From positions 73,085-137,084 of the forward strand of contig JAWPOC010000014.1 in NCBI GenBank assembly GCA_033345235.1: a DNA stretch of 64,000 nt, given 5' to 3'. The translations under genes and the position numbers were made by a program. This document shows, piece after piece, positions 2,930 to 59,215 of the stretch; the stretch's first letter is position 1; every line of letters begins with the position of its first letter. Below the pieces are notes generated by a model. The model made no database searches. It worked only from the letters and a program-made list of their open reading frames with translations, and was not told the origin of the DNA. This stretch comes from Alphaproteobacteria bacterium. Lineage in GTDB: Bacteria > Pseudomonadota > Alphaproteobacteria > Rs-D84.

Positions 2930-3678
2930 TGACACGATATAAAGTAAATCTTGAATACGATGGAACAGATTTAATTGGTTGGCAAGAAAATCGCCAAGGT
3001 CCATCTGTACAATCTATTGTCAAAGACGCAATATATGGATTTTGTGGTGTGCGTCCAGATGTTGTCGGTGCAGGACGCACAGACGCAGGTGTTCATGCGA
3101 TTTCTATGACGGCGCATTTTGATTTGCCGGATTCCGCACATGATGCAAACACTGTTATGCGCGCGCTGAATTTTTATATGGCGGAAAAACCTGTCTCGGT
3201 ATTGGATTGTGAAATTGTATCAGATGATTTTAATGCACGTTTTGCGTGCAGTGCGCGTCATTACAAATATCGTGTTTTGAATCGCAGTGCATCACCAGTA
3301 TTGGAAAAAAATCGTGTTTATTGGGTGCCGCGTTCATTGGATGTTGATGCAATGCGTGCCGCTGCGGCCAAGTTGTTGGGAAATCATGATTTTACCAGTT
3401 TTCGTGCAACCCAGTGTCAGGCAAAATCTCCGATAAAAACATTGGATAAAATCGAGATAACAAAAATCGGTGATGAAATTATTTTTGAATTTTCTGCCCG
3501 TTCTTTCTTGCATCATATGGTGCGAAATATTGTTGGAACATTATTGGAAATTGGCTTGGGAAAACCATACGATATTGATGAAATATTAAATGCGAAAAAT
3601 CGTAGTGCCGCCGGTCCAACCGCACCGGCATGTGGGCTGTATTTTATTCGTGCGGATTATAATGCCAGCGACGATTAA
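2929..3678 (+). CDS. truA: tRNA pseudouridine(38-40) synthase TruA
   Basis: The GAGRTDAGVHA catalytic-Asp motif is present. The length is 249 aa. Confidence 0.9.
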   Translation: MTRYKVNLEYDGTDLIGWQENRQGPSVQSIVKDAIYGFCGVRPDVVGAGRTDAGVHAISMTAHFDLPDSAHDANTVMRALNFYMAEKPVSVLDCEIVSDDFNARFACSARHYKYRVLNRSASPVLEKNRVYWVPRSLDVDAMRAAAAKLLGNHDFTSFRATQCQAKSPIKTLDKIEITKIGDEIIFEFSARSFLHHMVRNIVGTLLEIGLGKPYDIDEILNAKNRSAAGPTAPACGLYFIRADYNASDD

Positions 3679-24669: not shown

Positions 24670-24703
24670 TACAATAACCCACCGATTTAGTTTTTATTAT
24701 GCT

Positions 24704-26257
24704 TTATTGCATTCTGACAACACTGCATGTTTCTTGGCCACCAGTGTACTTTATCAGTTTGTCACATAATGTTTGTGCAGCACTAATATCAGATATTGGG
24801 CCAATGCGCAGACGGTACATTCTGGCGGCAGATGATGCAGTACCTAAATCGCCGACACCTTCGGCATCAACTGCAAAGAATACCATATCTTTGTACGGTG
24901 TTAATATACCGCTGCCTTCACTGCCGCTAAATTTAGCCAACAGATTTGTCCAATGATCTTCTAAGGCTTTGACGTTTGTATCAGACTTTAATTCAACTGC
25001 AACGCCAACCTGGTTACTGGAAATCAAAGGAATGTTTGTTTGTGGTAAATATGAACCCGCAGTATTTCTGACAGTTGGCAACATATTTACAACACTGCCC
25101 GAAGAGGTTGTTGGTTGTGGCGCGGTATACGTGCCATAGCCCGCAGGCATATAGTAACCTGCACCTGTTACAGGGTTAACAGTTCCTGTATTTCCCATAT
25201 ACATTGGTGTGCCGGTATAATTCATACCCATGCTCATTGCGGCCATATCTTGTGTGTATGCGATGTTGTTCAAAGATTGACCAGATAACATACTTTGTGC
25301 AACATTTGCTTCGGCCAAGGCCATAACAGATGCAGTGTCCGCAATCAAGAATGGTTTTTCGCGTCTTTTGATACAGACAATTCTTTGACCGCTGCGCAAA
25401 ACCATATCGCCAACAGCTTCGACGATTAACAGTCTGCCATCTTCGCCATCTGTACGGAATCCAACAGGTGATTCCCCACCTTCGACCAGCAATGAAACAA
25501 CCGGTCTTTGTGTCATAGATATAACCTTGTCACCAAAGTCAATATATGTAAAGATTCTGTCGCGCCATACGCGTTCTGGGGCAATGACATAATCATCTGG
25601 ATTTGGAACAAATATATCTAAATCAAAACGGAATTCAGATGGATCGATTTTCATAGATTTAATCCAACCATAATCTTCGCCATCGACACCAACTGTATTT
25701 GTTGTTTTTGCCGCCTTGTTAAAGATTGACTTTGCACTGCCTGTTGCAGATGTTGTTGCAGCCATCGGCAATTTGCCGTTGCCATCCAATGTGATGTCAA
25801 CCTGAGAATATGTGATTTCACTGGAATTAGATGGTTCGCTGCGTAAATAAAATATATATTTGTTACCAGATTGACCTGTTACAATCATATTTGTGTCAGA
25901 ACCCTGATTTGACCCTTCTGGTGATATAAACATTGTGCGATCGCCTGGGGTGGCTTGGATGTCGAATAAACCGCTGTTACCGACAATTGCGTCAGAAATT
26001 TGTTCGCCATTTGGCAAGTTAATCATCGTAACCATACCGTTACGTAACTTGATTGGTAATACAGAACCCGCAGACCAAGCCAATTGAGCGTATCCAGGTT
26101 TTACACTGCCGGCAGCCATATTTGCATTTGGGTTATCCCACGCAGATTGAATACCGTAATTCATACCGTACTCATTTGCGTTTGCGCCACATATAACCAA
26201 TGCACCCATCATGCAAAATAATGGTAAATTAAATCTGATTCTATTTAACAAAGTCAT
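24704..26257 (-). CDS. VirB9/TrbG-like secretion protein fused to a C-terminal SPOR peptidoglycan-binding domain
   Basis: The signal peptide is MTLLNRIRFNLPLFCMMGALVICGANA, and the start is chosen at 26257 with a GGAAGGA RBS. The N-domain motif is TNMIVTGQSGNKYIFYLRS (VirB9 TNLxVxTxxRxYxFxL). The C-domain is RVWRDRIFTYIDFGDKV...LLIVEAVGDMVLRSG. A Ser/Gly/Thr-rich linker precedes a terminal SPOR-like segment MYRLRIGPISDISAAQTLCDKLIKYTGGQETCSVV. Confidence 0.75.
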   Translation of the reverse strand: MTLLNRIRFNLPLFCMMGALVICGANANEYGMNYGIQSAWDNPNANMAAGSVKPGYAQLAWSAGSVLPIKLRNGMVTMINLPNGEQISDAIVGNSGLFDIQATPGDRTMFISPEGSNQGSDTNMIVTGQSGNKYIFYLRSEPSNSSEITYSQVDITLDGNGKLPMAATTSATGSAKSIFNKAAKTTNTVGVDGEDYGWIKSMKIDPSEFRFDLDIFVPNPDDYVIAPERVWRDRIFTYIDFGDKVISMTQRPVVSLLVEGGESPVGFRTDGEDGRLLIVEAVGDMVLRSGQRIVCIKRREKPFLIADTASVMALAEANVAQSMLSGQSLNNIAYTQDMAAMSMGMNYTGTPMYMGNTGTVNPVTGAGYYMPAGYGTYTAPQPTTSSGSVVNMLPTVRNTAGSYLPQTNIPLISSNQVGVAVELKSDTNVKALEDHWTNLLAKFSGSEGSGILTPYKDMVFFAVDAEGVGDLGTASSAARMYRLRIGPISDISAAQTLCDKLIKYTGGQETCSVVRMQ

Positions 26258-26285
26258 ACCAATCCTTCCCATTTTTTGTTTTCTT

Positions 26286-26951
26286 TTAGTTCTGCATAAA
26301 TCCTGTATCCAACGGGTCGCCATTTTCAGATATTATCTCATATTCTGAAACACGCATGCCCAACGGATTTTCGATTTTGTTAGCCCATTTTATTTTTGTG
26401 TTATCTTGTGTCTCAATTTTTATACGTATTGTATAATCTTTTTGCGTTGCAGGTCTAGTAGAATCTTTACAAAAATAGCGAAAAGTTACCTGATAAGTAT
26501 CTTTGCTGATTGGTAACGGTTCGCCATCAAAGAAAACGTCGCATTGTAAATTGTAACTCGGCGTATCGTTCATAATAGTATTAAATGCAGATGTGTTGAT
26601 AAAATCAGTGTACACGCCATCCGTAGACATGTTTCTGACAAAGCCATCAACGCTGTTCCATTTTTTTGTCATTACCTTAGCATTACTGCGGATTTCGTTT
26701 CTGTGTTTTACATATTCGCGCACCAAAGATTTCTTGTAAATATCCAAATGTTCACTTTTTGGCGGCATTTGTACCAGCTTTATATCCTGATCAGCGCGCG
26801 TTGTGGTTGTTAAAAAGAATATTTGTGGTCTGTTCAGTGGAAACATTTTGTCCAGTGTAAACACCAATGCGCCCAATACAACCAATGACATTGCAAGCAC
26901 GAATGTTAACAGTCTTGATATTAAAACTGGCGGTTTTACGCGGTTTTGCAC
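26286..26951 (-). CDS. VirB8-like protein (bitopic, NTF2-like periplasmic domain)
   Basis: It has a short cytoplasmic N-terminus, one TM helix and a ~170-aa periplasmic domain containing LVREYVKHRNEI. The architecture and gene order (B8-B9-B10) support the call. Confidence 0.5.
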   Translation of the reverse strand: MQNRVKPPVLISRLLTFVLAMSLVVLGALVFTLDKMFPLNRPQIFFLTTTTRADQDIKLVQMPPKSEHLDIYKKSLVREYVKHRNEIRSNAKVMTKKWNSVDGFVRNMSTDGVYTDFINTSAFNTIMNDTPSYNLQCDVFFDGEPLPISKDTYQVTFRYFCKDSTRPATQKDYTIRIKIETQDNTKIKWANKIENPLGMRVSEYEIISENGDPLDTGFMQN

Positions 26952-43231: not shown

Positions 43232-43984
43232 TTATCTGGATGGTTGTAATAATTGCGAAGTTATTTTTCCTAAGAATTTTGTAAATGTATTAGGTACAAC
43301 AATTTTTTGTTTGTCTTTTGGTTTTTTGTTGTCAGATATAATATCGCCTTGGACGTTACCTGGAACCTTGAAATTTTCAGGTAATTTGTTACCTTTGCAT
43401 ATCATATCGCCATATATCATACTTGGCATATCGTCCAGATTTACAAGCAGGTTATAAGAGCAATCAAATGTAGAGTATACAACATCCAGATGTCCGCCCA
43501 GATTGATTATTTTATTGTTTGAACAATTAAAGCACCCTGTGCATTCAGATGCGCCGTAAGACAAGTCTACTAATTCGTTATAGGAGCAATTAATATCGCC
43601 AGCAACACCATCAGATAAATAACGCAAGTCTTTAATTTTGTTGTGTGAGCAATCTAAACCGTTGCCAATATGCTTTGGAAGGTGGCGCAGGCTTTTAATT
43701 TTGTTGCGTGCGCAATTTAATTTTCCATTAATTTGGTTTGGAATCCCTTTTAATGAGTTTAAAGCATTATTTTGGCACAAGAAATCGCCGTACAATGTTA
43801 CATTTGACATATCTGGTAATTTCTTTAATCCTTTGCTGGATAGGTCAATGTCGCCGAAAATCACTGGATTATCCAATGTTTTTAATTCGTCCAGTGTTAC
43901 TGTTTTAAAATCAATGCTAGACACCAACAATGTTAGTGTTCCAGATACAACAATACCATCTTTGATAACAAATTCATTTCTCAT
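43232..43984 (-). CDS. leucine-rich-repeat protein (7-8 repeats of ~22 aa, LxCSxNKIxxLxxLP), no signal peptide
   Basis: Repeats such as LNCARNKIKSLRHLPKHIGNG, LDCSHNKIKDLRYLSDGVAGD and INCSYNELVDLSYGASECTGC are present. A terminator follows at ~43186-43230. Confidence 0.65.
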   Translation of the reverse strand: MRNEFVIKDGIVVSGTLTLLVSSIDFKTVTLDELKTLDNPVIFGDIDLSSKGLKKLPDMSNVTLYGDFLCQNNALNSLKGIPNQINGKLNCARNKIKSLRHLPKHIGNGLDCSHNKIKDLRYLSDGVAGDINCSYNELVDLSYGASECTGCFNCSNNKIINLGGHLDVVYSTFDCSYNLLVNLDDMPSMIYGDMICKGNKLPENFKVPGNVQGDIISDNKKPKDKQKIVVPNTFTKFLGKITSQLLQPSR

Positions 43985-46052: not shown

Positions 46053-46316
46053 GTGAGGGTAATTGTATCGATTTTTGCCATACTGTTATCGGTGCCGGCG
46101 TTTGCTGCCGACCCATTGGATGTTATTATTGATGCGGTTGCCGGCAAGAGTTACGCTGACAACAGTACAAATAACAAGGTTGATGTCCGCGAAGGTACCG
46201 TAAACAATATGCTGGGGCAATATGATGTTGTTAAACCCGGCATAATGACCGTAGAAATGCCGACATTGCCTGAAATATTAATCCTTGAAGAAGTTACAGA
46301 AGAAGCAACTGCATAA
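46053..46316 (+). CDS. small secreted protein, paralog C (divergent)
   Basis: It has a signal peptide MRVIVSIFAILLSVPAFAA. The motif EGTVNNMLGQYDVVKPGIMTVEMPTLPE aligns with EGTNNQMKGIYNVTGSGYMDVPTPDLPD of paralog A. Confidence 0.55.
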   Translation: MRVIVSIFAILLSVPAFAADPLDVIIDAVAGKSYADNSTNNKVDVREGTVNNMLGQYDVVKPGIMTVEMPTLPEILILEEVTEEATA

Positions 46317-46339
46317 AAAAATCCCCTTGTGGGACTTTT

Positions 46340-47296
46340 TTAATGCATACGTGATATTCGTGCCAAGCGAAATTGTGCGATTAGCTTTACAAGTCTCATT
46401 TCTTTGCGGGCGGCGTTTTCGGTATCGTGGTTATTTTTACGCAAGGTAGATTTTTGTATTGTTTGTGCGCGCATAAAATCCCATTTTTCTTGGCGGTGGC
46501 GGTTCAAAGCCTGTTGAAAATTTTCAAATGTTTTTTGTGATGCCAATTCGGTATCTTGCTTTGCCAACAGTTTTTTATATTCTGTGTTATAGTGTTGGCA
46601 GAATGCGCTTATAGATTCGCGGGCTGTTTTATACAGTTTTGCGCGTTCTTTGGCAGCTGTTTTTACAATATCAAATGATGTTGCGATATTATATTCATTC
46701 AGTAACACCATAGAGCCTGATTCCAAGACTTGGTTTACATTGCGTTGTGGCGCACGTACGACGGCGGATGTTTGAACCAGTTTTAACAGTTCTGAATATA
46801 ACTCGTTCAACAAGTTTTGTTGTTGTATCTTGTCTGTTACTGGGTTGCCTTCGATTTTGTATATCACAGAATAGGTTTGCATAACTTGCTGCATAAATTG
46901 CACAGATTTTCCGCGTTCAGGCTTTACGATAAAGTTTTTATCATATGGGTGTCTGTATGCTTTATTTTTGTGATTCAGTACACCATGCAAATATCGTGGT
47001 ATTTTTTTGTATTCTGGGTCACTTGGTATTGTTTGAAACAATGCGCGGGCTGTCCAGTGTATATTATGATGGTTCGGATTGTTTATATATTGTGATTGAG
47101 ATGGGTAATACAGTTGAAATACCTGATAGAAAAATCGCATTACATCCCAAAAGTCAATTTTTGTGTTGGGCACAGATTTTGTTTTAAAAGCAATATCAAA
47201 AAACTCGCGAAAAGTATTTTTAGTATATTCGTCCATATTCGCAGTCAGTTCTGCAAAGATATTTTCTGGGTTTGATAAGTTTAATGTTTGTGTCAT
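46340..47296 (-). CDS. hypothetical protein (318 aa, no signal peptide, helical)
   Basis: The ORF has an RBS. I recognise no motif. Confidence 0.4.
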   Translation of the reverse strand: MTQTLNLSNPENIFAELTANMDEYTKNTFREFFDIAFKTKSVPNTKIDFWDVMRFFYQVFQLYYPSQSQYINNPNHHNIHWTARALFQTIPSDPEYKKIPRYLHGVLNHKNKAYRHPYDKNFIVKPERGKSVQFMQQVMQTYSVIYKIEGNPVTDKIQQQNLLNELYSELLKLVQTSAVVRAPQRNVNQVLESGSMVLLNEYNIATSFDIVKTAAKERAKLYKTARESISAFCQHYNTEYKKLLAKQDTELASQKTFENFQQALNRHRQEKWDFMRAQTIQKSTLRKNNHDTENAARKEMRLVKLIAQFRLARISRMH

Positions 47297-47383: not shown

Positions 47384-48691
47384 TTATCTGACGGCGGCTT
47401 GTTTAAACAATTCGTCTGCAGATACTTTTTTTTCTTTTGTTTTGACGTGTGTCAGCATTGCGTCCAACGCCTTGCGTTCAAACAGCATGCCGCGCAACAT
47501 TGCCAATGCATTTTGGTTTTTGTTATAGAATTCAAAGACCTGTTTTGGATCTGGGTATCTGGATGCTTCGGCCCAGATTGCCTGTTGCAAATCTTCGCGT
47601 GAAATTTCGACTTTGTTTTGTGTGCCCCATTCGGCCAAGATAAGTCCTAATTTAACGCGGCGTTCTGCGTCTTTGCGTTCTTGTTTTTCGTCCCATTTAT
47701 GTTCGCATTTTTCATCGTGGCAATGTGAGTGTGCACGATCGAATTCAGATTTTGCCATTTCCAATTCTTGGGTGACCAAAGATTCTGGCAAATCTAATTT
47801 AACTTTATCTGCCAAAGCGTCCAACAATTCGTTACGCATTTCACGTTGTGCTGCATCAGCATATTGTTCATTCAAGATATTGCGAATATGTTGTTTTAAC
47901 GCATCTACAGATTCTTGACCGACTGTTTTTGCCAATTCGTCATTTAATTCAGGCAGTATATGTTTGCGAATTTCGTGTACTTCGACAGCAAAGCGTGCAT
48001 CTTTACCGGCCAAGTTTTCTGCATGATAATCAGATGGGAATTTAACATTTACATCAAATTTATCACCGATTTTGTGACCGATAATTTGATCTTCGAACCC
48101 AGGGATAAAAGAACCAGAGCCCAAGATTAAGTGATGTTTTTTTGCGGCGCCGCCTTCGAACGCTTCGTCACCGACAAATCCTGTAAAGTCGATAACTGCG
48201 ACGTCACCATTTGCGGCCTTGTACTTTTCGTCTTGTTTTTCTGCGACGCTGCGGCTTTTGCGGATGTTTTCCAGTGCTGTATCAACTTCTTTTTCATCCA
48301 AGTCGGCAACTTTCTTTGTAACTGTGATTTTAGACAAATCGATTTCAGGCAAAGTTGGCAATATATCAAATTCCAAAGAATATTCGGCATCTTTACCGAT
48401 TTCCCAACCGGCCAAGTCAGCTTTTGGCGCACCGGCCAGACGGATTTTTTTATCTGCGACGTATGCGTCTAAATCTTTGTTCATTAATTTATCAATGGCT
48501 TCGCCATATGCAGACGCGTTATATTTCTGGCGCAGTATGGACAAAGGCACCTTGCCGGCGCGAAAACCGGCCATTTTTACTTTTTTGCCATATTCCAGCA
48601 AAATTTCATCAGCGACCGCCTGTAATTCGGATGTGGCCAGTGTGCCATTAACGACGTAATGTAAATCTTTGATTTTTTCTTTTGTGAACAT
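47384..48691 (-). CDS. tig: trigger factor
   Basis: It has an N-terminal ribosome-binding domain (GFRAGKVP) and a PPIase domain. It is 435 aa. A terminator follows at 47343-47378. Confidence 0.9.
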   Translation of the reverse strand: MFTKEKIKDLHYVVNGTLATSELQAVADEILLEYGKKVKMAGFRAGKVPLSILRQKYNASAYGEAIDKLMNKDLDAYVADKKIRLAGAPKADLAGWEIGKDAEYSLEFDILPTLPEIDLSKITVTKKVADLDEKEVDTALENIRKSRSVAEKQDEKYKAANGDVAVIDFTGFVGDEAFEGGAAKKHHLILGSGSFIPGFEDQIIGHKIGDKFDVNVKFPSDYHAENLAGKDARFAVEVHEIRKHILPELNDELAKTVGQESVDALKQHIRNILNEQYADAAQREMRNELLDALADKVKLDLPESLVTQELEMAKSEFDRAHSHCHDEKCEHKWDEKQERKDAERRVKLGLILAEWGTQNKVEISREDLQQAIWAEASRYPDPKQVFEFYNKNQNALAMLRGMLFERKALDAMLTHVKTKEKKVSADELFKQAAVR

Positions 48692-48915
48692 ATGTTTTTC
48701 CCTATTGTAAATTAAAATGCCAGATGATTATACAATGTTTTAAAATGAAAGCAATAATAAAAAAATCCCCTGTTTGGTGACAAGTGACTGGTGTAAGTAA
48801 AGGATGGTTTTTCTTTTTTTTTTGTCATCTCTGTGCCCCCCTTTTTTTTAATATATGAAAATTGTTCAAGAATAAACTTTAAAAAAATCCCCCAAACGGG
48901 GGATGATTTAAATGA

Positions 48916-51678
48916 TTAGGGCATCGTTGCTTCGCCTCCAACAAGATCTTCTCTGTTTGTCTCGCCTGCTTCAACCTTCGGTGTATCTGGATTGACCACC
49001 CCCCCTCCTGCAACTGTTTTTGGGATGCAGGTATTAGTAAATTCGTTCAGCTCATACCCAGAATTACACTTAATTTTCGCGGTCAAGGTTGCGCCTGCGG
49101 TTAATTGTTTGTTTGTGAAATAACCTTGTTCATCCACGTAACAATTGTCTCTAGCGTCGCAATACCCTTCAAAAGATCCGTTGGCAACAACATTTGTTGG
49201 GACAGTTACCTTGTTTATTTTTGATGTACAAGTAGCATTTGAATGGTATGCATCCGTATTCAAATGATAGTAAATAGTTTGTGCGTTTGTGTCGCCTGAT
49301 TTTGCTTGTAACTCAACCGCTACGCATTTGCCTGATTCTGCGATACACGTTTTGCTGTTGGCGGTATAACCGTCAATGCATTCAAAACCGTCATCGGTGA
49401 GTTCAGCATAATCAACTGGTTCACATGAGGAGCCTGTGTTTGTCGACAAATTCGGGCATTTGCATTCATAGTTATTCATATTGAATGTGCCACCACTGGT
49501 TTCGCAACGTTTTTGCAAGCTGTCCTCGGACACATAGATAACTTGTGTGTTATGCACCCATTCACGCATAGATGCAGGTGTTGGTTCAGTTGATGCCGCG
49601 CCATTTACAGACATACATGTTGTAATCTGTGCTTTACATGCGTTAACTGCGATATTGCTCTTTGGTGAAGAACCGTTTTCCCAATCGTAATTGTTATTCT
49701 GCAGGCACTTTGTAACGTCGGTGATACATTCTTCGGCGTGTTCTGCCAACAGGTTATCTTGCGCAACCTTTATCTTGGTCAATGTGCGTTGCAAGTATTC
49801 TTTGATAACACGATTGTCTGGCATATATTCTTCGCCATCTTCGTCAAATGTGTATGCCTGACATGTTTTTAAATGGTCGGCGCACATACCATAACTTTTA
49901 CCATCCTCGCCGATATAGCCAATCTTGTTTTGCAAGAATTTTGCCATATTTGTTTCTGTGCCTATATTTTCATCTGTTATGGTTTCATTGATATATTCTG
50001 TTAATGTGCCACTTACCCATGGGGATTCGTTGTTGCCGTACGCCCATGTTTTATACAGACCGGTTTCCCATTGGATAGGTTTTGATTTTAAGTCTGTGCC
50101 ATCTTCAACCGCATATCCTGGGGTTGAACCGACAACCAATTCGCCATCAACGATATATTTACCTGTTGGATCCAGACAGTATTCGTAATCAGCCCCACAG
50201 ATAAATTCGTCTTGCATACATGAATCCAACGCGTTTATACAACCGCGCAAGTCATTAGAATTCTTGTTACGAGAAATGCCAACACGCGCATTTTGCAGTG
50301 CGACTTCGGCGACCAAAACACGGTTCTTCATTTCTTCGTTTTTCTCTTCCAGCAAGCGTTCGTATGCGATACAGTCTTTGTCAATCGCGATATCGTATGA
50401 ATTTGTGATAACTGCGATATCAACACCCTTGGATTGTGCTTCGTTTAACACAGCGGCCTTGCAACGTGCACTGGCTGTTTTGTACAGCTGTTCCCCACGT
50501 TGGTTGTTAATGCTGCTGGTGTCAGCGGTGTTGGTGCTGGTACCGAACAGGTTAAATCCACCCAATAATCCATCAAGCCCTTCGCCATTCAGTAATGCAG
50601 ATGGGTTAAAGAACGATGTGGTGGTTGTGTTTGTGTATGTTGCAGACGAACTGGCCTTTGGTGTTTCGATTTCACGCATTGATTTTCTGACCGCTTCGAT
50701 ATCAGCAGCCAAATCAGAATTGTCGGTTTTACCGCTCATCGCTAATTCAGCACCTGTTTCTTCGAATATCGCTTCGATATCAGATGGATCCAGTTCCAAG
50801 TAACTTAATTTAATAACTGCGTCAATATATTCGTCGTTTGCGACTTTCAGTGCATTTTCAATTTCTGCATAACTTTTGATGTTCTTTGAACAAGTACAAC
50901 GATTTTGTTGATCGTCCAGTTTGTTACAATAGTTATCCATACAGTTTTGATAACGTTCTTTGTAAACCGTTGTCAAAGATTCCATATATTCCAGCTGTTC
51001 TGCTGTTGTAATTGCATCTTCGGCAGAAACACTGGTGGTTACACTGCTTGTAGTTGCGCCGGCAGATGGCGAGCGCGCCATAACCGCCGAAGAACGTGTG
51101 CTGACGCGGCCGGTGTACAATGGTGTGTTAACAGTGTCTGTTTGAACCAGTGAACCTGCGCGTGCAGTTCTGGCACCACCTGTTGTTGTCGCAGCACGAC
51201 GAGCCGCCGTAACCGTAGATGGTGTCGTCGCAGATGTTGCTGCCGCGCGTACAGGACGCAATACTAAACGATTCGATGTTGCCGCACGTGATGATGTAGC
51301 GCCTGCGCGGGATGTGGTTGCACGTGGTGTAACCGTTGCAGTGCGTGGTGCGACCCCTGTGCGTGCAGTTGTTGCCGCACGCGATGCGGTTGCAGTACGT
51401 GTACTGACGTTGCGTGTGCTGGCATTACGTGTGTTGCCAGTCGCAGAATTTGTGTTCGGGATATTTCTGGCCGCTGCGCGTCCGCCAACAGTTGAACGTG
51501 GGCTGACACTGGATGGTTGGGCAACCGGTTGCACAACCGCAGGCGATGTTTCTGCAGCATTTGCATCCGAAATTTCATCTTCGGCGTATTCTATAATTTC
51601 GTCATAGTAAATCGGCGCAACCTCAGCAAATGCGGGCAAAACCAACAGACTACTTAATACTGCAACAAATCTTTTCAT
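48916..51678 (-). CDS. large secreted Cys-rich protein (920 aa) with N-terminal Arg/Ala/Thr/Ser low-complexity region
   Basis: It has a signal peptide MKRFVAVLSSLLVLPAFA. About 150 aa of (R/A/T/S)n repeats follow. It contains about 45 Cys, including repeated C-x-(S/D)GY-x-L modules near the C-terminus (CNSGYELNEFTNTC, CIDGYTANSKTC). A terminator follows at 48885-48912. Confidence 0.6.
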   Translation of the reverse strand: MKRFVAVLSSLLVLPAFAEVAPIYYDEIIEYAEDEISDANAAETSPAVVQPVAQPSSVSPRSTVGGRAAARNIPNTNSATGNTRNASTRNVSTRTATASRAATTARTGVAPRTATVTPRATTSRAGATSSRAATSNRLVLRPVRAAATSATTPSTVTAARRAATTTGGARTARAGSLVQTDTVNTPLYTGRVSTRSSAVMARSPSAGATTSSVTTSVSAEDAITTAEQLEYMESLTTVYKERYQNCMDNYCNKLDDQQNRCTCSKNIKSYAEIENALKVANDEYIDAVIKLSYLELDPSDIEAIFEETGAELAMSGKTDNSDLAADIEAVRKSMREIETPKASSSATYTNTTTTSFFNPSALLNGEGLDGLLGGFNLFGTSTNTADTSSINNQRGEQLYKTASARCKAAVLNEAQSKGVDIAVITNSYDIAIDKDCIAYERLLEEKNEEMKNRVLVAEVALQNARVGISRNKNSNDLRGCINALDSCMQDEFICGADYEYCLDPTGKYIVDGELVVGSTPGYAVEDGTDLKSKPIQWETGLYKTWAYGNNESPWVSGTLTEYINETITDENIGTETNMAKFLQNKIGYIGEDGKSYGMCADHLKTCQAYTFDEDGEEYMPDNRVIKEYLQRTLTKIKVAQDNLLAEHAEECITDVTKCLQNNNYDWENGSSPKSNIAVNACKAQITTCMSVNGAASTEPTPASMREWVHNTQVIYVSEDSLQKRCETSGGTFNMNNYECKCPNLSTNTGSSCEPVDYAELTDDGFECIDGYTANSKTCIAESGKCVAVELQAKSGDTNAQTIYYHLNTDAYHSNATCTSKINKVTVPTNVVANGSFEGYCDARDNCYVDEQGYFTNKQLTAGATLTAKIKCNSGYELNEFTNTCIPKTVAGGGVVNPDTPKVEAGETNREDLVGGEATMP

Positions 51679-51862
51679 AGAAAAATCTCCCTTTCAATTA
51701 TGTTTATTTTATCACATAAGCAAAAATATTACAAACGAAAAAATGAGTATATCGAATGTGTTTTGGTATAAATTCCTAAAACGTTAAAAAATATAATGAA
51801 TTTTCTTGCGGGGTATTGTCTTTTGATTTATAATCGCAGACGAAACGCAAAAAGGAAAGATT

Positions 51863-53458
51863 TTGTCAGTATTAAAAAAAGTTGCTTTTTGGATTTTTTC
51901 TTTACCGCTGATGGGCTGTACAACAGTGCCAACATCAATGAATGATAATGATGCCAGACTGGAAAACTATGCGCCAAAGATTACCAAGGCTGATTTTGCC
52001 TATAATCCGTATGAAACGCCAATTGCGCGTGTTTATGCCACAGAGTTAAAGTCTGGGGATGATGTATCTGGGGCGACCCTTATCCAAGATGGTCTGTCTG
52101 CATTTGTGGTTCGATCTGCGTTTGCGCGTATGGCAACCAAGACAATCGATTTGCAGACGTATATATACAGTAATGACTTTTCATCGAAAATATTAATCGC
52201 AGAATTAAAAAATGCTGCTGATCGCGGGGTCAAGGTCAGAATACTGTTGGATGATTATGGAACCAAGTCTGATATTGTCGACGTTATGTTGCTGAATCAG
52301 CATCCTAATATCGAAGTCAAAGTCTTTAACGCAGTACCAAATCGTACCAAGATTTTATATTATCCGCAATTTTTGACTGATTTTAATCGACTGAATTCGC
52401 GTATGCATAATAAATTGTTTATCGTTGATAATGTTGCATATATCACAGGCGGCAGAAATGTCGGCAGTAATTATTTTTATCCAGAAACAGCGTCTAACTT
52501 TTCAGATACAGATGTTTTGTTTATCGGTGATATGACGCGCTTTGCGACGGACAGTTTTAATGAATATTGGCAACATCATTTGTCGATTCCTGCGTCTGTG
52601 TTCCCAAAGGCCACATCCAAGAAAGCGCTGTATAAACTGGAAAGGTCGTTTACAGAAATCAGTCGCAAAAATATGGATAATGCACAAATGTACAATAACA
52701 TTATCAATATGGCGCAACAAGAATATCAAGACAGAAAATTTGATTTTTCATGGGGACGTGGAAAATTCTTGGCTGATCCGCCTGAAAAAGTCGAAATGAA
52801 AATGGCTGAAAAAGAATGTTATCGTGGCGATATTATCAAGGCATTACAGCATTTGTGGGCCCAGACAACAGATTCTGTGTATATGTCTGCGGCGTACTTT
52901 GTCCCGGGGCAGGGCGGTTTAGAACATATCTTGCGTGAGGAAAATTCAGGTGTGCATATGACGATTGTTACAAATTCTTTGGCGTCAACAAATGCACCAA
53001 CTGTGTATGCTAAATGGGAAAAATACAGAAAGCGTCTGATTGAATCTGGGGCAGATGTATATGAATTTATGGTGTCGGCAGAAAACTTGCGCGGGAAAGA
53101 ACATGATCGTGAACGTAAACAGTCCAGTTTTTCTGTCTTGCATAGTAAAACGATGGTCTTTGATGATGATATTTCATGGATTGGCAGTTTTAATTTGGAT
53201 CCACGCAGCGCGTATTATAATACTGAAAACGTGGCGATATTTGAAAGTCGTGAATTTGCAGATAAATTACGCACGATGATTGTCGAAGATACTCAAACAT
53301 CATGGCATGTGACATTGGATGGTAATGGCAATCCAGTATGGTCTGGATTTCGTGGCAATGAAACAAAACCGCGTGTTTATAACTATGCCCCAGATACCAG
53401 TATATTCAGACGTATTTGGAAATCGATTTGTAATTTGGTACCAGAAAAATTTGTATAA
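51863..53458 (+). CDS. phospholipase D-family lipoprotein (two HKD motifs; cardiolipin-synthase-like)
   Basis: It has a lipobox-like LPLMGC and two HxK(x)4D motifs (HNKLFIVD, HSKTMVFD). Confidence 0.75.
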   Translation: MSVLKKVAFWIFSLPLMGCTTVPTSMNDNDARLENYAPKITKADFAYNPYETPIARVYATELKSGDDVSGATLIQDGLSAFVVRSAFARMATKTIDLQTYIYSNDFSSKILIAELKNAADRGVKVRILLDDYGTKSDIVDVMLLNQHPNIEVKVFNAVPNRTKILYYPQFLTDFNRLNSRMHNKLFIVDNVAYITGGRNVGSNYFYPETASNFSDTDVLFIGDMTRFATDSFNEYWQHHLSIPASVFPKATSKKALYKLERSFTEISRKNMDNAQMYNNIINMAQQEYQDRKFDFSWGRGKFLADPPEKVEMKMAEKECYRGDIIKALQHLWAQTTDSVYMSAAYFVPGQGGLEHILREENSGVHMTIVTNSLASTNAPTVYAKWEKYRKRLIESGADVYEFMVSAENLRGKEHDRERKQSSFSVLHSKTMVFDDDISWIGSFNLDPRSAYYNTENVAIFESREFADKLRTMIVEDTQTSWHVTLDGNGNPVWSGFRGNETKPRVYNYAPDTSIFRRIWKSICNLVPEKFV

Positions 53459-54787: not shown

Positions 54788-55621
54788 TTATTTTTTATCT
54801 TTTAATTCCATATATTTTTCTGAAACGATTTTTTGCAGTACATCTGCAATTTGTTTTCTGTCCATGCCCGCCAATGGCGGTGGTGGCAACAATGTAATTT
54901 CAACCATAAATCCGCCCAGCATCATTATATGAAAGACTTGACCAAATGCACTGCGTTCGCGCTTGCATAATGGGCCTGTATCCATCTTTGCATTTGAGAA
55001 ATATGCAAAATGATCTGCCAATGTTTGGTCGTCAATAACGCTGCCGTCGCGATATCTATAATGCATAGTCATTGGTTGAACTGTGACATTCGAATTTTCA
55101 ACAAAGTTAAACAATGAACTTTTAAATAGTTTTACATACGCGCCATTTGTTGTTGTGCCTTCTGGAAATAATATCATTGGATATTGTACGTTTTGTACGG
55201 TCTTTTGTACCACAGCCAATGCATCACGTGCATGCGAAGGACGACGGTCAACAAAAATAACACCGAACTTTTTTGCAACCCATCCGACCAAAGGCCAATT
55301 TTCCATTTCTTTTTTTGCGATAAAGCTGCCATGAAATGCCAATGGAAAAGTCGCCAATTCAAATACAGATATATGGTTTGACACAATCATCAATGGACGT
55401 TTGTCAGACAGTTTTCCATGAACGACAATCTTTATACCGGCTAACTTTATCAAGAACCACATAAATATCGGCATATATCGTACGGACAGCTTACTGCCAG
55501 TTGGTAATAGAAAAATTATTGGCACTTGTATAACAACCAGCAGCCAAAATGTTACAAATTTAATTGTGGCTGTTATTGTATTGAAAATATTTTGTTTTCT
55601 TGGCTGTTTTGTTTTAGTCAT
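54788..55621 (-). CDS. olsA: lyso-ornithine-lipid O-acyltransferase (PlsC family)
   Basis: The HxxxxD/E block NHISVFE and FPEGTTTNG are present. The ATG at 55621 overlaps the olsB stop (ATGACTAA). Confidence 0.55.
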   Translation of the reverse strand: MTKTKQPRKQNIFNTITATIKFVTFWLLVVIQVPIIFLLPTGSKLSVRYMPIFMWFLIKLAGIKIVVHGKLSDKRPLMIVSNHISVFELATFPLAFHGSFIAKKEMENWPLVGWVAKKFGVIFVDRRPSHARDALAVVQKTVQNVQYPMILFPEGTTTNGAYVKLFKSSLFNFVENSNVTVQPMTMHYRYRDGSVIDDQTLADHFAYFSNAKMDTGPLCKRERSAFGQVFHIMMLGGFMVEITLLPPPPLAGMDRKQIADVLQKIVSEKYMELKDKK

Positions 55622-56570
55622 CTGTGTCTGCTTTTTGTGAATCTTCGATATATTCTGCATCTTCTGCATCTTCGCGTAACAAGAATTCAACAAACGCGCG
55701 AACGACTTTAAAAGGGCCAACCACAGGGAATGTTATAATCTTGCCAACAGTTTTCATAATGTTTTCTTTTTCTTCGGGGTTACCCAGTGCGTTTTCACGA
55801 CCCAAGAAATGTTTTTGATATGTTGCATTCATCTTGCGTGTTTCAATCATTACGAACACGTCATAAGAATTAAAAGGCGCGTCAATAAATACACCACGAC
55901 CAAATGTTGCGCCCAAACGTAAATAGCCTTTAATCAAAGGTGTCATTTCAGATTTTGCATCTGCTTCGTCAACAAAGTCGCGTGGCAATATATTCATACG
56001 TGACATTTTTGGATTGACGCCTTCGGCAAAATTTTCGGATAACACAGTTGCACGTAAACGCAAAGGTGTTAAATGATTATAATACAAATATGAAATCGCC
56101 TGTGCAGAGCGTGCAGGCTTTGAGCCAACAAAAGATGCGACGCCAAACAAGATTTCAATTTTACGGCGCAAAATCATTTCACCCAGCCCTGCCCATAATA
56201 AACGCATTACCAACGCATTATCGCGATAAGATTTTTCAACGCACGCGCGTGACATTTCTGCGATATTGCCATGGTATTTTTTTATTTTAGAGATATTAAA
56301 TTCGTTTTCTGTATAAAATCCGCCCATTTTTTCTGCGGCATTTCTGTCGATAATTCTATAAGTCCCAACAACGCGCCCATTATGAAATACAGCCATATAT
56401 TCTGCATATCTGTCATAAGAATCGTACTCTTCGCCCAATGCACGTTGTTCTTCGGTTGTTGCGGCGCCTTCTTCTTCGACAAACACTGCATAACGTAGTT
56501 GACGTACCTGCTTGCGTTCTTCTTTGTTACGTGTTAATCGTACTTCATAATCGCGGACTTTAATAGCCAT
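55614..56570 (-). CDS. olsB: ornithine N-acyltransferase (hemolysin-like GNAT)
   Basis: It contains QLRYAVFVEEEG...DSYD...FHNGRVVGTYRI, the OlsB-family pattern. It lies just upstream of olsA. Confidence 0.6.
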   Translation of the reverse strand: MAIKVRDYEVRLTRNKEERKQVRQLRYAVFVEEEGAATTEEQRALGEEYDSYDRYAEYMAVFHNGRVVGTYRIIDRNAAEKMGGFYTENEFNISKIKKYHGNIAEMSRACVEKSYRDNALVMRLLWAGLGEMILRRKIEILFGVASFVGSKPARSAQAISYLYYNHLTPLRLRATVLSENFAEGVNPKMSRMNILPRDFVDEADAKSEMTPLIKGYLRLGATFGRGVFIDAPFNSYDVFVMIETRKMNATYQKHFLGRENALGNPEEKENIMKTVGKIITFPVVGPFKVVRAFVEFLLREDAEDAEYIEDSQKADTDD

Positions 56571-57694: not shown

Positions 57695-59215
57695 TTAAAA
57701 AGCGATTTTTACGCCCAGATGCAAGCCAAAAGATTGCCATGTTGCGCGTTTTAATGAGTCAGACACTTGTTCCGTATGTGCCGGTACTTGGTCTATTTCA
57801 GGAATATAGGCAATAATATTACCATAATCATCATAAACAGGGTTCATAATATATTGTCCGTTTTCATCCATTACATAGTAGCTGTATTCTGCGACATATA
57901 GTTCCCCAGGGATGTTGCCAACATGGAACAGGTTTGTATCGACTTTTAATGATAATTGCAGTCTGTCAGACAGTTTGTAATTGTATTCTAATTCTGCGGC
58001 ATATGAATAAGATCCGTTGCTGCCTTCGTCCAAAAAGCTGGGGTTTTGTTGCCAGTCTGTACGATTGGGCCAAATACCTTCGGATGAATATTTCGGCAGA
58101 CCGAATTGCATATATAAACGCAGCTTATCTTTTAAAGTCATCTGTTTTTCAACTTCCAGACCGACGTAAAAGCCGCTCCACGTTGTGTTATAAATATGTG
58201 TTGTTCCTTCGACAACAATTGGGCCATCGCCACCAATTATAACACATTCGCCTTGGTTAACGCCCCATGGAATTGTACCTAAATCAGATGTATAATCATT
58301 CGTTGTCAAAGAATCACCCAAGATTCCAAATATTCCATCCATTCCGGTATAGCTATTTGTAACAATCTTGATATCTTCGGGTGACATACAAACCTGATAC
58401 CAATCTTCTGGTGGTGTAGAACCGATTGGTACTGAATAATAATATCCGTTTTCATCGCCGAATACATAGTCGCCCTTGTTTGTCATCAAAGGTAAATATA
58501 TCCCCGGGTTCGGATAGTAATGATTAGACATTTCTAGGTTATGCTTGAATATTTCATAACCAAATGTTGGTGATAATTTCCATCCTGCGATATCCCAGAT
58601 ATGATGCGCTGCAACCCCAAATCGGAAATAGTTGCTGCGACCAGATTGTGCGCCAACCGAAACAGTAAATATGCCGTATTCTGGGTATGCTTCATCAAAT
58701 GGCTTTAAGTCATAGTCCATTGATAAACCCGCATGTGACATTTTGCCATACGCATAGTCACCGTAAATATACATATCAAAATCACGTAAACTGAAATTAT
58801 GACGTGCACCGACGCGTATTTCGTCAAATAACATGTCGTCCCATTCCAGAACAGAATTAACACCGGTTTCGAATTCAAAGTCCGCAAATCTGCGCGCATA
58901 AGATGCATACATTGATGTTGCAGGTTCTGCCTGTGGGGGTAATGCAACGCCATTTGTTGTCATTGTGCCTAAAAAAGTCGGGACAGGCGCGGGACGTGGC
59001 ACTTGGTACGAGTACGATCTGGCGCCAACGACCTGTTTGCTGCCAGATTGACCGACGTATTTAGTATAACCTTGGTTGGCGTATTGACCATATGCCATTT
59101 GATTTGCGTTCGGGGCAGTGGATGTTTGATAATATGATGGTACCCCCTCGTTCACAGCAAATGCCGCCAAAGGTGCACAAATTAACGAAAAAAATGAAAA
59201 AATCCCAGCCTTCAT
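57695..59215 (-). CDS. putative outer-membrane beta-barrel protein
   Basis: It has a signal peptide (LAAFA). Amphipathic beta-strands alternate throughout. The C-terminal residue is aromatic (LHLGVKIAF). Confidence 0.45.
   Translation of the reverse strand: MKAGIFSFFSLICAPLAAFAVNEGVPSYYQTSTAPNANQMAYGQYANQGYTKYVGQSGSKQVVGARSYSYQVPRPAPVPTFLGTMTTNGVALPPQAEPATSMYASYARRFADFEFETGVNSVLEWDDMLFDEIRVGARHNFSLRDFDMYIYGDYAYGKMSHAGLSMDYDLKPFDEAYPEYGIFTVSVGAQSGRSNYFRFGVAAHHIWDIAGWKLSPTFGYEIFKHNLEMSNHYYPNPGIYLPLMTNKGDYVFGDENGYYYSVPIGSTPPEDWYQVCMSPEDIKIVTNSYTGMDGIFGILGDSLTTNDYTSDLGTIPWGVNQGECVIIGGDGPIVVEGTTHIYNTTWSGFYVGLEVEKQMTLKDKLRLYMQFGLPKYSSEGIWPNRTDWQQNPSFLDEGSNGSYSYAAELEYNYKLSDRLQLSLKVDTNLFHVGNIPGELYVAEYSYYVMDENGQYIMNPVYDDYGNIIAYIPEIDQVPAHTEQVSDSLKRATWQSFGLHLGVKIAF

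Follow-up and report, generated by a model that had tools for sequence, protein, structure and literature searches.

A lineage-restricted, cysteine-rich candidate surface protein with a conserved arginine-rich tract and a variable C-terminal module

Within the 64,000-nucleotide stretch of DNA analysed here (hereafter the window) lies a gene whose predicted product joins a signal peptide, a tract rich in Arg, Ala, Thr and Ser and a large Cys-rich body. An earlier note on this DNA had picked out the tract as a candidate for slipped-strand length variation and the protein as a candidate for a surface or host-interaction role. The locus raises two questions: which part of the protein varies between strains, and what such a protein might be doing in the bacteria that encode it.

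The gene, its product and its family

The open reading frame is a genuine gene. It begins with ATG, occupies positions 48916-51678 of the minus strand and encodes 920 residues, just as had been noted. It is a monocistronic unit, as judged from a predicted promoter-like site, of a kind no commoner in this region than in shuffled sequence, and from a terminator-like hairpin beyond which tig is the next gene (Table 1). At the N-terminus, the n-region, h-region and A-x-A of MKRFVAVLSSLLVLPAFA, followed by EV, make up the pattern of a Sec signal peptide, in keeping with the previous description of the protein as secreted. This peptide is nearly invariant in an alignment of Enterousia-clade homologues (M1 K2 R3 F4 ... 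P15 A16 F17 A18), and E19, V20, P22, Y25 and E30 of the mature N-terminus are invariant among the aligned homologues. Neither a lipobox nor a C-terminal β-barrel nor a known sorting signal was seen in the 920-residue protein. The query has no autotransporter Pfam domain, its C-terminus consisting of the Cys-rich module and then a disordered tail rich in Gly, Glu and Pro, and no dedicated secretion system adjoins the gene within the 64-kb window. Charge is strongly segregated, with +21 on the Arg tract and -58 on the remainder of the mature protein.

The protein contains 28 Cys residues rather than the roughly 45 claimed before, although they do occur in spaced pairs, with C-x6-C at 480/487, 494/501, 599/606, 651/658, 681/688 and 778/785. 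Taken with the signal-peptide pattern, the 18 Cys columns conserved in the family suggest export to an oxidising compartment. Natural loss of Cys is confined to C239 and C414, which are missing jointly from the same four sequences and never one without the other, as a disulfide pair would be. The core that contains them is predicted by AF2 (129 sequences) to form long helices, with pLDDT above 90 over most of its length.

Database searches failed to place the protein in any known family. Pfam (searched with the query, 59 family members and 5 long members), NCBIfam (searched with the query) and sequence profiles against the PDB yielded only sub-threshold noise, namely DUF1283, DUF4215, FTA4 and protein G. 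DUF1283 reached 13.0 bits where the cut-off is 25 (PF06932) and 16.1 where it is 129 (NF010180), while DUF4215 (PF13948) scored 13.2 against 27. For the core there is no Pfam or NCBIfam match, no sequence match among the PDB profiles and, in Foldseek searches of the PDB and BFVD, no relative below E = 0.1. A match to a well-characterised family, which the earlier note had said would overturn its reading, was therefore not found.

The family itself is large. It comprises more than 1127 word-index matches, all unannotated, and 673 clusters at 50% identity, with profile scores reaching 888 bits, and 463 stretches of species-representative genomes contain a relative. Its members have a common architecture, in which the signal peptide is followed by a polycationic disordered tract of around 160 residues in (S/T/A)4R-like units, a helical core of around 490 and, at the C-terminus, a Cys-rich extension whose length varies. 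The signal peptide, the R/S/T/A tract and the core motifs CMDN(Y/F)CN...RC(T/S)CS, IDK.C..YE, LRGC..ALD.CMQD..CG.DYE.CLDPTGKY and C...I.TCMSV.G, by which the family is defined, are all found in alignments A1-A4. When the search was started from the distant member P0256, only 7 proteins were retrieved. The best 80 of the 463 loci are labelled as Ca. Enterousia or as Alphaproteobacteria or Rickettsiales MAGs, or carry names that are more generic or evidently the result of mis-binning, and the record titles of many of these 80 refer to animal-gut samples. The family is seen only in gut Alphaproteobacteria of the Ca. Enterousia / Rs-D84 type. An origin in mobile elements was considered and rejected, as tblastn found no homologue in plasmids or phages.

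The bacteria carrying the gene are gut Alphaproteobacteria with genomes of less than 1 Mb and, probably, a partner-dependent lifestyle. According to one study, Ca. Enterousia and the wider Rs-D84 order are widespread in animal and human guts, with genomes below 1 Mb that lack lipid and metabolite biosynthesis, and a dependence on other cells has been proposed (PMC12306168). Those portions of the Enterousia / Rs-D84 literature that were covered hold no mention of the protein family.

Among the neighbouring genes only one is conserved. A gene for a PLD-family protein is found upstream, in the opposite orientation, at 69 of the best 80 of the 463 related loci, with a GalE-like epimerase gene intervening in 15 of the same 80; the downstream position of tig is not conserved. 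In NCBIfam the PLD-family protein falls short of the cut-offs set for cardiolipin synthase. Nearby genes encode a lytic transglycosylase and an outer-membrane protein of Pom type. Elsewhere, one distant family member comes immediately after an OEP-MFP-MacB operon, encoding a pump of a type that exports substrates from the periplasm.

Table 1. Features of the locus, with positions in the window. Amino acid (aa) numbers refer to the 920-residue protein.
Feature	Position	Strand	Remarks
Terminator-like hairpin (intrinsic type)	48887..48904	-	ATCCCCC-GTTT-GGGGGAT then T7; 12 nt past the stop codon
Variable C-terminal module, aa 713-920	48919..49542	-	Cys-rich and beta-rich, 12 Cys; from strain divergence
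Conserved core, aa 216-712	49543..51033	-	Cys-rich, mostly helical; 16 Cys in query, 18 conserved Cys columns in family
Variable loop in core, aa 516-585	49924..50133	-	Divergence hot spot between strains
Conserved hydrophobic segment in core, aa 338-386	50521..50667	-	Asp- and Gly-rich; two 'FDL' motifs in family consensus; low-confidence prediction
Polycationic disordered tract, aa 56-215	51034..51513	-	Degenerate (S/T/A)4-6-R units; 22 Arg, 0 Lys, net +21
Invariant motif QTDTVNTPLYTGRVSTRSSAVMARSP, aa 179-204	51067..51144	-	Tract end; Q179 to P204 largely invariant in 14 homologues
Conserved mature N-terminus EVAPIYYDEIIEY and acidic block, aa 19-55	51514..51624	-	Net charge -9
Predicted signal peptide MKRFVAVLSSLLVLPAFA, aa 1-18	51625..51678	-	Predicted cleavage after A-F-A, mature start EV
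Putative ribosome-binding site AAGGGAGA	51686..51693	-	7-8 nt before ATG at 51678; read from sequence
Promoter-like site TTGTAA-17-TAAAAT with TG extension	51706..51734	-	Upstream of the ORF; consensus match only
PLD-family protein gene	51863..53458	+	Divergent; Pfam PLDc_2 and PLDc; lipoprotein-type signal LPLMG/C, lipobox read from sequence

The arginine-rich tract and the C-terminal module

The Arg/Ala/Thr/Ser-rich tract is present much as described, at about residues 56-215, and its DNA is indeed GC-rich, at 0.57-0.60 compared with about 0.40 for the window. All of the excess resides in the first and second codon positions (0.675 versus 0.44), while GC3 is 0.40 both in the tract and in the remaining gene, so that the high GC content follows from amino-acid composition. 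The agreement in GC3 also led us to reject foreign or compositionally anomalous DNA as its source. The imperfect short tandem repeats previously reported can scarcely be made out in the DNA: TRF yields a single 15-nt array (2.8 copies, 70% match, score 49), a repeat search gives no more than in-frame copies that are 60-85% identical and lie 18, 54 or 93 nt apart, and an SSR scan finds no microsatellite of at least four units. Periodicity at the DNA level, on which the proposal of hypervariability had been made to depend, is thus essentially lacking. At the protein level, on the other hand, periodicity is real. Across the family, the distance between Arg residues peaks at 5, with 205 cases where shuffled sequences give 67, and distances of 1-3 are under-represented, in tracts containing 11.8% R, 1.9% K and 3.3% D+E.

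It is, of course, a low-complexity, quasi-periodic and compositionally distinct tract of this kind that brings to mind a contingency repeat, by which slipped-strand events would vary the length of a surface protein between cells or strains, and the length preceding the core does range from about 45 to 262 residues among distant family members. Nevertheless, we consider this explanation very improbable, given the single short and imperfect TRF array, repeat copies no more than 60-85% identical, the lack of any microsatellite of at least four units, the mixture of synonymous codons within the tract and a GC3 like that of the remaining gene. Comparison of alleles tells against it too. A single inserted Ala and a handful of substitutions are all that distinguishes the tracts of five alleles from near-identical strains, and dN/dS of the tract between such strains is 0.08-0.16. 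At greater distance, homologues of about 50% identity all retain R61, 67, 71, 100, 112, 124, 141, 161 and 173 (alignment A1). The claim of slipped-strand hypervariability consequently finds no support. With its invariant Arg residues, their non-random spacing, low dN/dS and unremarkable GC3, the tract, modelled by AF2 at a pLDDT of only 25-30, is a conserved functional low-complexity region rather than a slipped-strand contingency tract.

The truly hypervariable part of the protein is instead the C-terminal module. In strain comparisons the tract shows 4-17 differences per 300 nt and the C-terminal region 106-127, the figure of 127 coming from a strain otherwise about 99% identical. In the comparison with L081, dN/dS in the module is 1.37, a value above 1 that derives from 55 substitutions in one strain pair, while the core has 12 synonymous changes and no nonsynonymous ones. 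The high ratio could partly reflect recombination tracts and not point-wise positive selection. The comparison with L083, in which dS is 1.02 in the module and 0.04 in the core, indicates allele replacement in the module. A second hot spot is the loop within the core, where 37 and 22 differences per 300 nt stand out from a background of 0-8, dN/dS is 0.72-1.07 and two alternative indel variants are shared among alleles in mosaic fashion. The alleles as a whole are mosaic, the Cys scaffold being kept while the exposed Cys-rich part varies. No neighbouring gene evolves as fast as the C-terminal tip, which strains also exchange. In the same genomes, a 90% cluster holds 3 members for the Cys-rich protein, compared with 79 for tig and 285 for ProRS.

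The module is correspondingly hard to trace. Searched alone, it retrieves only one close relative, a fragment of 75% identity, and its best Pfam match, to DUF4215 at E = 0.12, is not significant. AF2 gives 10-residue block means of mostly 53-78 in its folded part and below 50 at about residues 825-867 and 898-920. Across the family, anything from 0 to about 1670 residues may be found at this position. The 687-residue forms, the most frequently recovered of all, have almost no extension while keeping tract and core. In the tails of other relatives Pfam recognises Flg_new (3.1e-8, in 1 of 59 members) and Ephrin_rec_like (3e-6, in one), and canonical Listeria-Bacteroides repeat motifs are present in those of P0149, P0173, P0224, P0227 and P0234. 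Neither silent cassettes nor paralogues were found within the 64-kb window. The locus offers a caution, since a GC-rich low-complexity tract that gives an impression of hypervariability may turn out to be the best conserved element of its kind in the gene while the real variability lies in a region of ordinary appearance.

Possible roles of the protein

On balance, and with slightly better than even confidence, we regard the protein as a Sec-exported, disulfide-stabilised modular envelope or surface protein of Ca. Enterousia / Rs-D84 with a recombining C-terminal tip. The original suggestion of a surface or host-interaction protein remains the best reading in the light of the export signal, the wealth of potential disulfides, the fast-evolving, recombining C-terminal module and the surface-type modules of relatives. 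That it functions in surface display or partner binding is what we infer from these features. The signal peptide would deliver a mature protein beginning with a conserved acidic N-terminus, after which the disordered tract, its charge pattern kept by purifying selection, would most likely serve as a flexible electrostatic tether to anionic polymers of the envelope or of a partner's surface. The helical core, locked by perhaps 8-9 disulfides, may act as a conserved scaffold or stalk, and the Cys-rich beta module as the exposed recognition end, either binding a ligand or being seen as an antigen. Between strains, this module is diversified by recombinational replacement and positive selection.

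Several features would also suit a protein that never leaves the envelope. The acidic, disulfide-rich body and the polycationic tract might self-associate or bind peptidoglycan or outer-membrane components and so stiffen the envelope, in functional analogy to the Cys-rich envelope proteins of chlamydiae, the variability of the tail arising from weak constraint or from phage or predator pressure. The segregation of charge, the many conserved disulfides and the want of a recognisable outer-membrane translocation signal all accord with this, as do the 687-residue forms that retain tract and core. The conserved neighbour, an envelope lipid enzyme in the form of a PLD-family lipoprotein, and the nearby genes for the Pom-type protein and the lytic transglycosylase can be counted on the same side. 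However, the elevated dN/dS and the allele replacement are limited to loop and tail, next to a core with zero nonsynonymous changes, a pattern more readily explained by exposure to selection from outside than by a relaxation of constraint. Moreover, relatives have built their extensions from modules typical of cell-surface proteins, and neither sequence nor fold resembles chlamydial OmcB or OmcA. We therefore judge a purely structural role rather unlikely.

More doubtful still is a membrane-active effector, in which the conserved segment at residues 338-386 would form an amphipathic 'FDL...FDL' hairpin inserted into a partner membrane while the PLD-family lipoprotein helped to obtain lipids or metabolites. 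This segment is hydrophobic, Asp- and Gly-rich and modelled with low confidence between long helices, and the PLD-family gene is the one conserved neighbour. A lineage without lipid or metabolite biosynthesis of its own, for which dependence on other cells has been proposed (PMC12306168), would fit such an arrangement, and the MacB context of the distant member is compatible with it. Yet the best Foldseek match to a ClyA-type or other pore-former is not significant (E = 8), the segment includes conserved Asp residues and may be too short to span a membrane, adjacency to the PLD-family gene may simply be genus-wide synteny, and the MacB context comes from a single locus. The combination of a conserved N-terminal region with a strongly variable C-terminal one that recombination swaps might also recall polymorphic toxins, whose N-terminal region serves delivery and whose C-terminal toxin domain is paired with an immunity gene. 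That identification is hardly credible here: the gene has its own terminator followed by tig, with no small immunity-type ORF downstream, the most commonly recovered forms lack an extension, the long tails consist of repetitive Cys-rich or Listeria-Bacteroides-repeat modules with no Pfam toxin match, and the signal is of Sec type rather than a T5, T6 or T7 delivery motif.

Returning to the exported modular surface protein, one may go further and imagine the family as the principal device by which Rs-D84 / Enterousia engage partner cells. A previously unseen disulfide-locked helical fold would carry an Arg-rich disordered arm gripping anionic surfaces and an FDL hairpin inserting into the partner membrane, the cell would feed on its partner with the PLD-family lipoprotein, and the C-terminal module would set partner specificity. 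We give this elaboration little credence as it stands. Even so, the family occurs across hundreds of species-level genomes, is predicted to be exported and has no detectable relative elsewhere; this breadth and lineage restriction, combined with a fast-evolving, exchanged tip, make it a concrete candidate for a molecule facing a partner, the host or phages. For bacteria thought to live off other cells, it would provide a practical marker for strain typing and a bait with which to seek the partner.

Comparison with known systems

Contingency loci of Neisseria, Haemophilus and Campylobacter share with this gene a surface-protein candidate, a low-complexity tract and a host-associated bacterium. 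They differ in that the present locus lacks both DNA repeats of high identity and length polymorphism, and its tract is subject to purifying selection.

The chlamydial 60-kDa CRP, OmcB, is a Sec-exported, Cys-rich envelope protein of a host-dependent Gram-negative bacterium with a reduced genome, and a basic region near its N-terminus binds anionic host glycosaminoglycans. By analogy, the present protein would combine a Sec-type signal and abundant Cys in a similarly reduced, dependent bacterium, with a much longer N-terminal polybasic tract (+21) ahead of the disulfide-rich body. OmcB is not known to have a long modular variable C-terminal extension. The present protein is related to OmcB and OmcA in neither sequence nor fold: its core is helical, it matches none of the chlamydial OMP families in Pfam, and Foldseek gives nothing below E = 0.6 in the PDB.

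A likeness to modular surface proteins made of Listeria-Bacteroides (Flg_new) repeats (PF09479; InlB B-repeat type) is confined to the C-terminal extension, where several family members have canonical repeats. Although the query has no Flg_new match at E ≤ 1, its residues 785-870 keep the strand and Gly-aromatic pattern of such repeats (...V.L....G....IYY...VP....F.GY......TLTA..., read from alignment A1). The tract and helical core have no counterpart in Flg_new proteins.

Finally, there are parallels with Cys-rich variable surface proteins that carry furin-like or ephrin-receptor-like repeats, such as the VSP type of Giardia (Pfam Ephrin_rec_like, DUF4215). The present protein is bacterial, without a VSP-type membrane anchor or silent copies in the 64-kb window, and its variation is seen between strains. 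Like VSPs, though, its family has C-x-C and C-x6-C knots, for example 'C.TSGGT(W/F)....C.C', recurring in the variable extensions, and in both cases it is mainly the exposed Cys-rich part that varies, on a Cys scaffold that is retained.

A conserved polycationic tract

The Cys-rich gene is a real ORF of 920 aa with an ATG start, whose product begins with a classic Sec signal peptide pattern (MKRFVAVLSSLLVLPAFA followed by EV, read from sequence). The gene looks to be a self-contained transcription unit, since it has a ribosome-binding site, a promoter-like site and a strong terminator-like hairpin of its own, as the table shows. An identical protein from an 'Alphaproteobacteria bacterium' MAG is held at NCBI as MDW2994900.1, 'hypothetical protein R8N24_02645'.

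Features of the Cys-rich gene and its surroundings; divergence is in differences per 300 nt from contigs L081 and L083 of near-identical strains, unless stated
Feature	Position	Strand	Details
ComEC-type competence protein	3644-5590	-	
BspA-like protein	18669-21173	+	834 aa
Type IV secretion gene cluster	22219-26951	-	
Leucine-rich-repeat protein	43232-43984	-	250 aa
Hot spot in leucine-rich-repeat gene	43579-43878		14, in one near-identical strain
ORF between tig (trigger factor) and S1 gene	46340-47296	-	318 aa
3' end of that ORF plus spacer	46279-46578		28 vs L081, background 0-5
C-terminal module	48679-49578		up to 36 (L081), 127 (L083)
Terminator-like hairpin	48904-48887		ATCCCCC-GTTT-GGGGGAT then T run; 12 nt past stop
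Cys-rich gene	48916-51678	-	ATG-started ORF
C7 run	48999-49005	+	coding-strand G7, within codons 892-894 (GGG)
Loop, aa 516-585	49879-50178		37 and 22
Arg/Ala/Thr/Ser tract, aa 56-215	51034-51513		4-17
Ribosome-binding site	7-8 nt 5' of ATG	-	AAGGGAGA, read from sequence
Promoter-like site	51734-51706	-	TTGTAA-17-TAAAAT, motif match
PLD-family gene	51863-53458	+	
OlsB-like GNAT and OlsA-like acyltransferase pair	54788-56570	-	
Pom-type protein	57695-59215	-	'Protochlamydia outer membrane protein' family

An earlier note had drawn attention to the Arg/Ala/Thr/Ser tract as hypervariable-looking, in a protein credited with about 45 Cys; the count is in fact 28. The tract itself exists: its residues include 22 Arg and a single Asp but no Lys, its net charge is +21, and its DNA is GC-rich as claimed (0.57-0.60 vs approximately 0.40 for the window). 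Its supposed tandem repeats largely dissolved under a TRF check, which reported a single array (15-nt unit, 2.8 copies, 70% match). A repeat search found in-frame copies that are 60-85% identical and lie 18, 54 or 93 nt apart, and an SSR scan found no microsatellite of at least four units. The GC excess is confined to codon positions 1 and 2 (0.675 vs 0.44); the tract and the remainder of the gene share a GC3 of 0.40, with a mixture of synonymous codons, so that the encoded amino acids account for the composition, which is no sign of a distinct DNA element.

Purifying selection acts on the tract, which is conserved: its dN/dS against L081 is 0.08 (Nei-Gojobori). Arg is invariant at positions 61, 67, 71, 100, 112, 124, 141, 161 and 173 among sequences only around 50% identical, and the alignments show the tract to close with the invariant motif QTDTVNTPLYTGRVSTRSSAVMAR.P. 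Mean composition across 64 cluster representatives is 11.8% R, 1.9% K, 3.3% D+E and 48% S+T+A, with Cys absent and aromatic residues almost so. Spacing between Arg residues peaks sharply at 5 (205 observed vs 67 in shuffles), while spacings of 1, 2 and 3 are depleted (41, 18 and 24 vs 108, 96 and 85). Composition, Arg invariance and spacing together therefore define the tract as a conserved quasi-periodic (S/T/A)4R polycation, which AlphaFold models as disordered (pLDDT 25-30).

Strain variation in the loop and C-terminal module

The gene does merit the interest shown in it, but the wrong part had been singled out: variability sits in the C-terminal module and one loop, which are hypervariable and recombine between strains. 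The same locus is found on three contigs from other samples, two of which, L081 and L083, match the window over 14.7 kb at approximately 98-99% identity, with a background of 0-8 differences per 300 nt. By Nei-Gojobori estimates against L081, all 12 changes in the core are synonymous, and dN/dS is 0.72 in the loop and 1.37 in the C-terminal module (45.5 nonsynonymous, 9.5 synonymous). Against L083, dS is 1.02 in the C-terminal module vs 0.037 in the core, which shows that recombination has brought in a segment of a divergent allele.

Mosaicism is also visible in an alignment of five close alleles, where loop (variants 'DE----NIGTET' and 'DEIPSDNTDTEK'), tract and tail variants occur in differing combinations, and family member P0002 has a tail like that of P0003, a more distant one. 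Two more results point the same way. Within the same genome population, the query's cluster at 90% identity has 3 members, that of the PLD-family protein 9, that of trigger factor 79 and that of prolyl-tRNA synthetase (ProRS) 285. Searched alone, the C-terminal module retrieves one fragment only, 75% identical. No paralogue or silent cassette of the gene lies within the 64-kb window, and the ComEC-type protein is consistent with the uptake of DNA and the homologous recombination that allele swapping would require. A frameshift at the C7 run, around 28 codons before the stop, would change only the disordered C-terminal tip; no sign of variation is seen there among the five alleles.

Two other divergent spots lie in the window. 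One is in a leucine-rich-repeat gene whose product weakly matches internalin J (5.6e-8, far under the cut-off); the other, a further strain-variable spot, is the 3' end of an ORF whose product has no Pfam or NCBIfam match.

An unannotated family and its predicted architecture

Searching 5.8 billion proteins retrieved more than 1127 hits, every one without a Pfam domain or name, and a core profile run on 1.84 billion cluster representatives matched 673 clusters at E <=1e-3 and 216 at E <=1e-30. Members span 212-2338 aa, complete ones running from approximately 645 aa upward. When a single genome was scanned for each species, 463 stretches encoding members emerged. The best 80 of these are labelled Candidatus Enterousia, 'Alphaproteobacteria bacterium', 'Rickettsiales bacterium' or uncultured (proteo)bacterium MAGs, with one record bearing a Muribaculaceae MAG title; many titles name gut samples of cattle, yak, sheep, goat, deer or buffalo, and several isolate names contain 'Hadza'. 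The query is a member of a large family without annotation, seen in the Enterousia/Rs-D84-type lineage alone. A few genomes hold two copies, one family-bearing record is a 958,618-base chromosome with an isolate name saying circular, and plasmid and phage collections yielded no homologue. Ca. Enterousia and the Rs-D84 order are described in one account as having genomes of roughly 0.75-1.0 Mb, without respiration and with most biosynthesis missing, and as probably dependent on other cells (PMC12306168).

Part order is identical in all aligned members: signal peptide, mature N-terminus, tract, core and C-terminal extension. The mature N-terminus is invariant in the Enterousia clade (EVAPIYYDE(V/I)IEY, then an acidic block, net charge -9). 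The core, of approximately 490 aa (216-712), has 18 conserved Cys columns, many paired as C-x6-C. Its sole natural Cys losses, C239 and C414, go together: four sequences, which form the query's clade, lack both, and none lacks just one. Such joint loss is the mark of a disulfide pair and of a protein that folds in an oxidising compartment; the Cys pattern as a whole fits disulfide bonding.

A full-length AF2 model from 14 sequences was poor (mean pLDDT 51.6). A second, of aa 215-920 with 129 diverse members, reached a mean of 75.6, the core lying largely above 90, and has long core helices (222-251, 267-293, 396-416, 421-471 with 51 residues, and 623-661) separated by short beta elements. The internal segment 338-386 is conserved (consensus G(L/M)sFDLSGLLDFsIDStGFDLssLFG) yet of low confidence. 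The tools applied found no known family or fold for the query, and the core appears to be a new fold in an uncharacterised family.

C-terminal extensions range from 0 to around 1670 aa; the query's, of 208 aa with 12 Cys, is modelled as beta-rich at moderate to low confidence. The Pfam profile Flg_new, for the Listeria-Bacteroides repeat, is matched by one member at 3e-8, and Ephrin_rec_like by a different one at 3e-6; both module types are characteristic of cell-surface proteins. Canonical '...NGG...GY.F.GW....LYA.W' repeats occur in the tails of P0149, P0173, P0224, P0227 and P0234, and short 'C.(S/T)SGGTW....C.C' knots recur. The query tail retains the Flg_new-type pattern but is too divergent for a Pfam score.

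Neighbourhood and possible function

Neighbours in the window are housekeeping or envelope genes, among them trigger factor, ribosomal protein S1, ProRS and a lytic transglycosylase. The OlsB/OlsA-like pair, which suggests ornithine-lipid synthesis, and the Pom match are unusual envelope features for a reduced-genome alphaproteobacterium. The type IV secretion cluster, which could be its cell-contact machinery, encodes a VirB10/TrbI-like protein that is unusually long (816 aa) and has 16 Cys and an acidic N-terminal region rich in Tyr, Glu and Asp; it also contains genes for a VirB9/CagX-like protein of 539 aa and for a product of 221 aa, possibly VirB8. The BspA-like protein, which has 20 Cys, a signal peptide, BspA-like leucine-rich repeats ('F..C..L.G.IP..LF') and no Pfam match at 1e-4, is a candidate further surface or host-interaction protein. 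Elsewhere, at a single locus (L089, 5109-12391), the gene for the distant member P0256, from a 'Rickettsiales bacterium' MAG, lies directly 3' of outer-membrane factor (OEP), membrane-fusion protein and MacB-type ABC ATPase/permease genes on the same strand; MacB-type pumps expel periplasmic substrates.

We lean slightly towards a surface or partner-binding protein. The C-terminal module would be its exposed recognition end, acting as adhesin or antigen, with the helical core as scaffold and the Arg tract as an electrostatic tether, the mature query outside the tract having a net charge of -58 vs +21 within it. A purely structural envelope role is rather unlikely.

The sole conserved neighbour, the divergent PLD-family gene, adjoins the family gene at 69 of 80 related loci, a GalE-like epimerase gene being inserted between the two in 15. 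Its product combines a pair of PLD domains with a lipoprotein-type signal (…SLPLMG-C) and falls under cardiolipin synthase cut-offs; the adjacency may connect the Cys-rich gene functionally with membrane lipids, in a lineage unable to synthesise lipids. A membrane-active role exercised jointly with this protein is improbable. Slipped-strand variation of the tract, with its imperfect repeats and purifying selection, is very improbable, and we give equally little credence to a polymorphic toxin, which would share the variable C-terminus. However new its core fold may be, the family is of a familiar kind: exported and modular, with a body that is conserved and a tip that diversifies.
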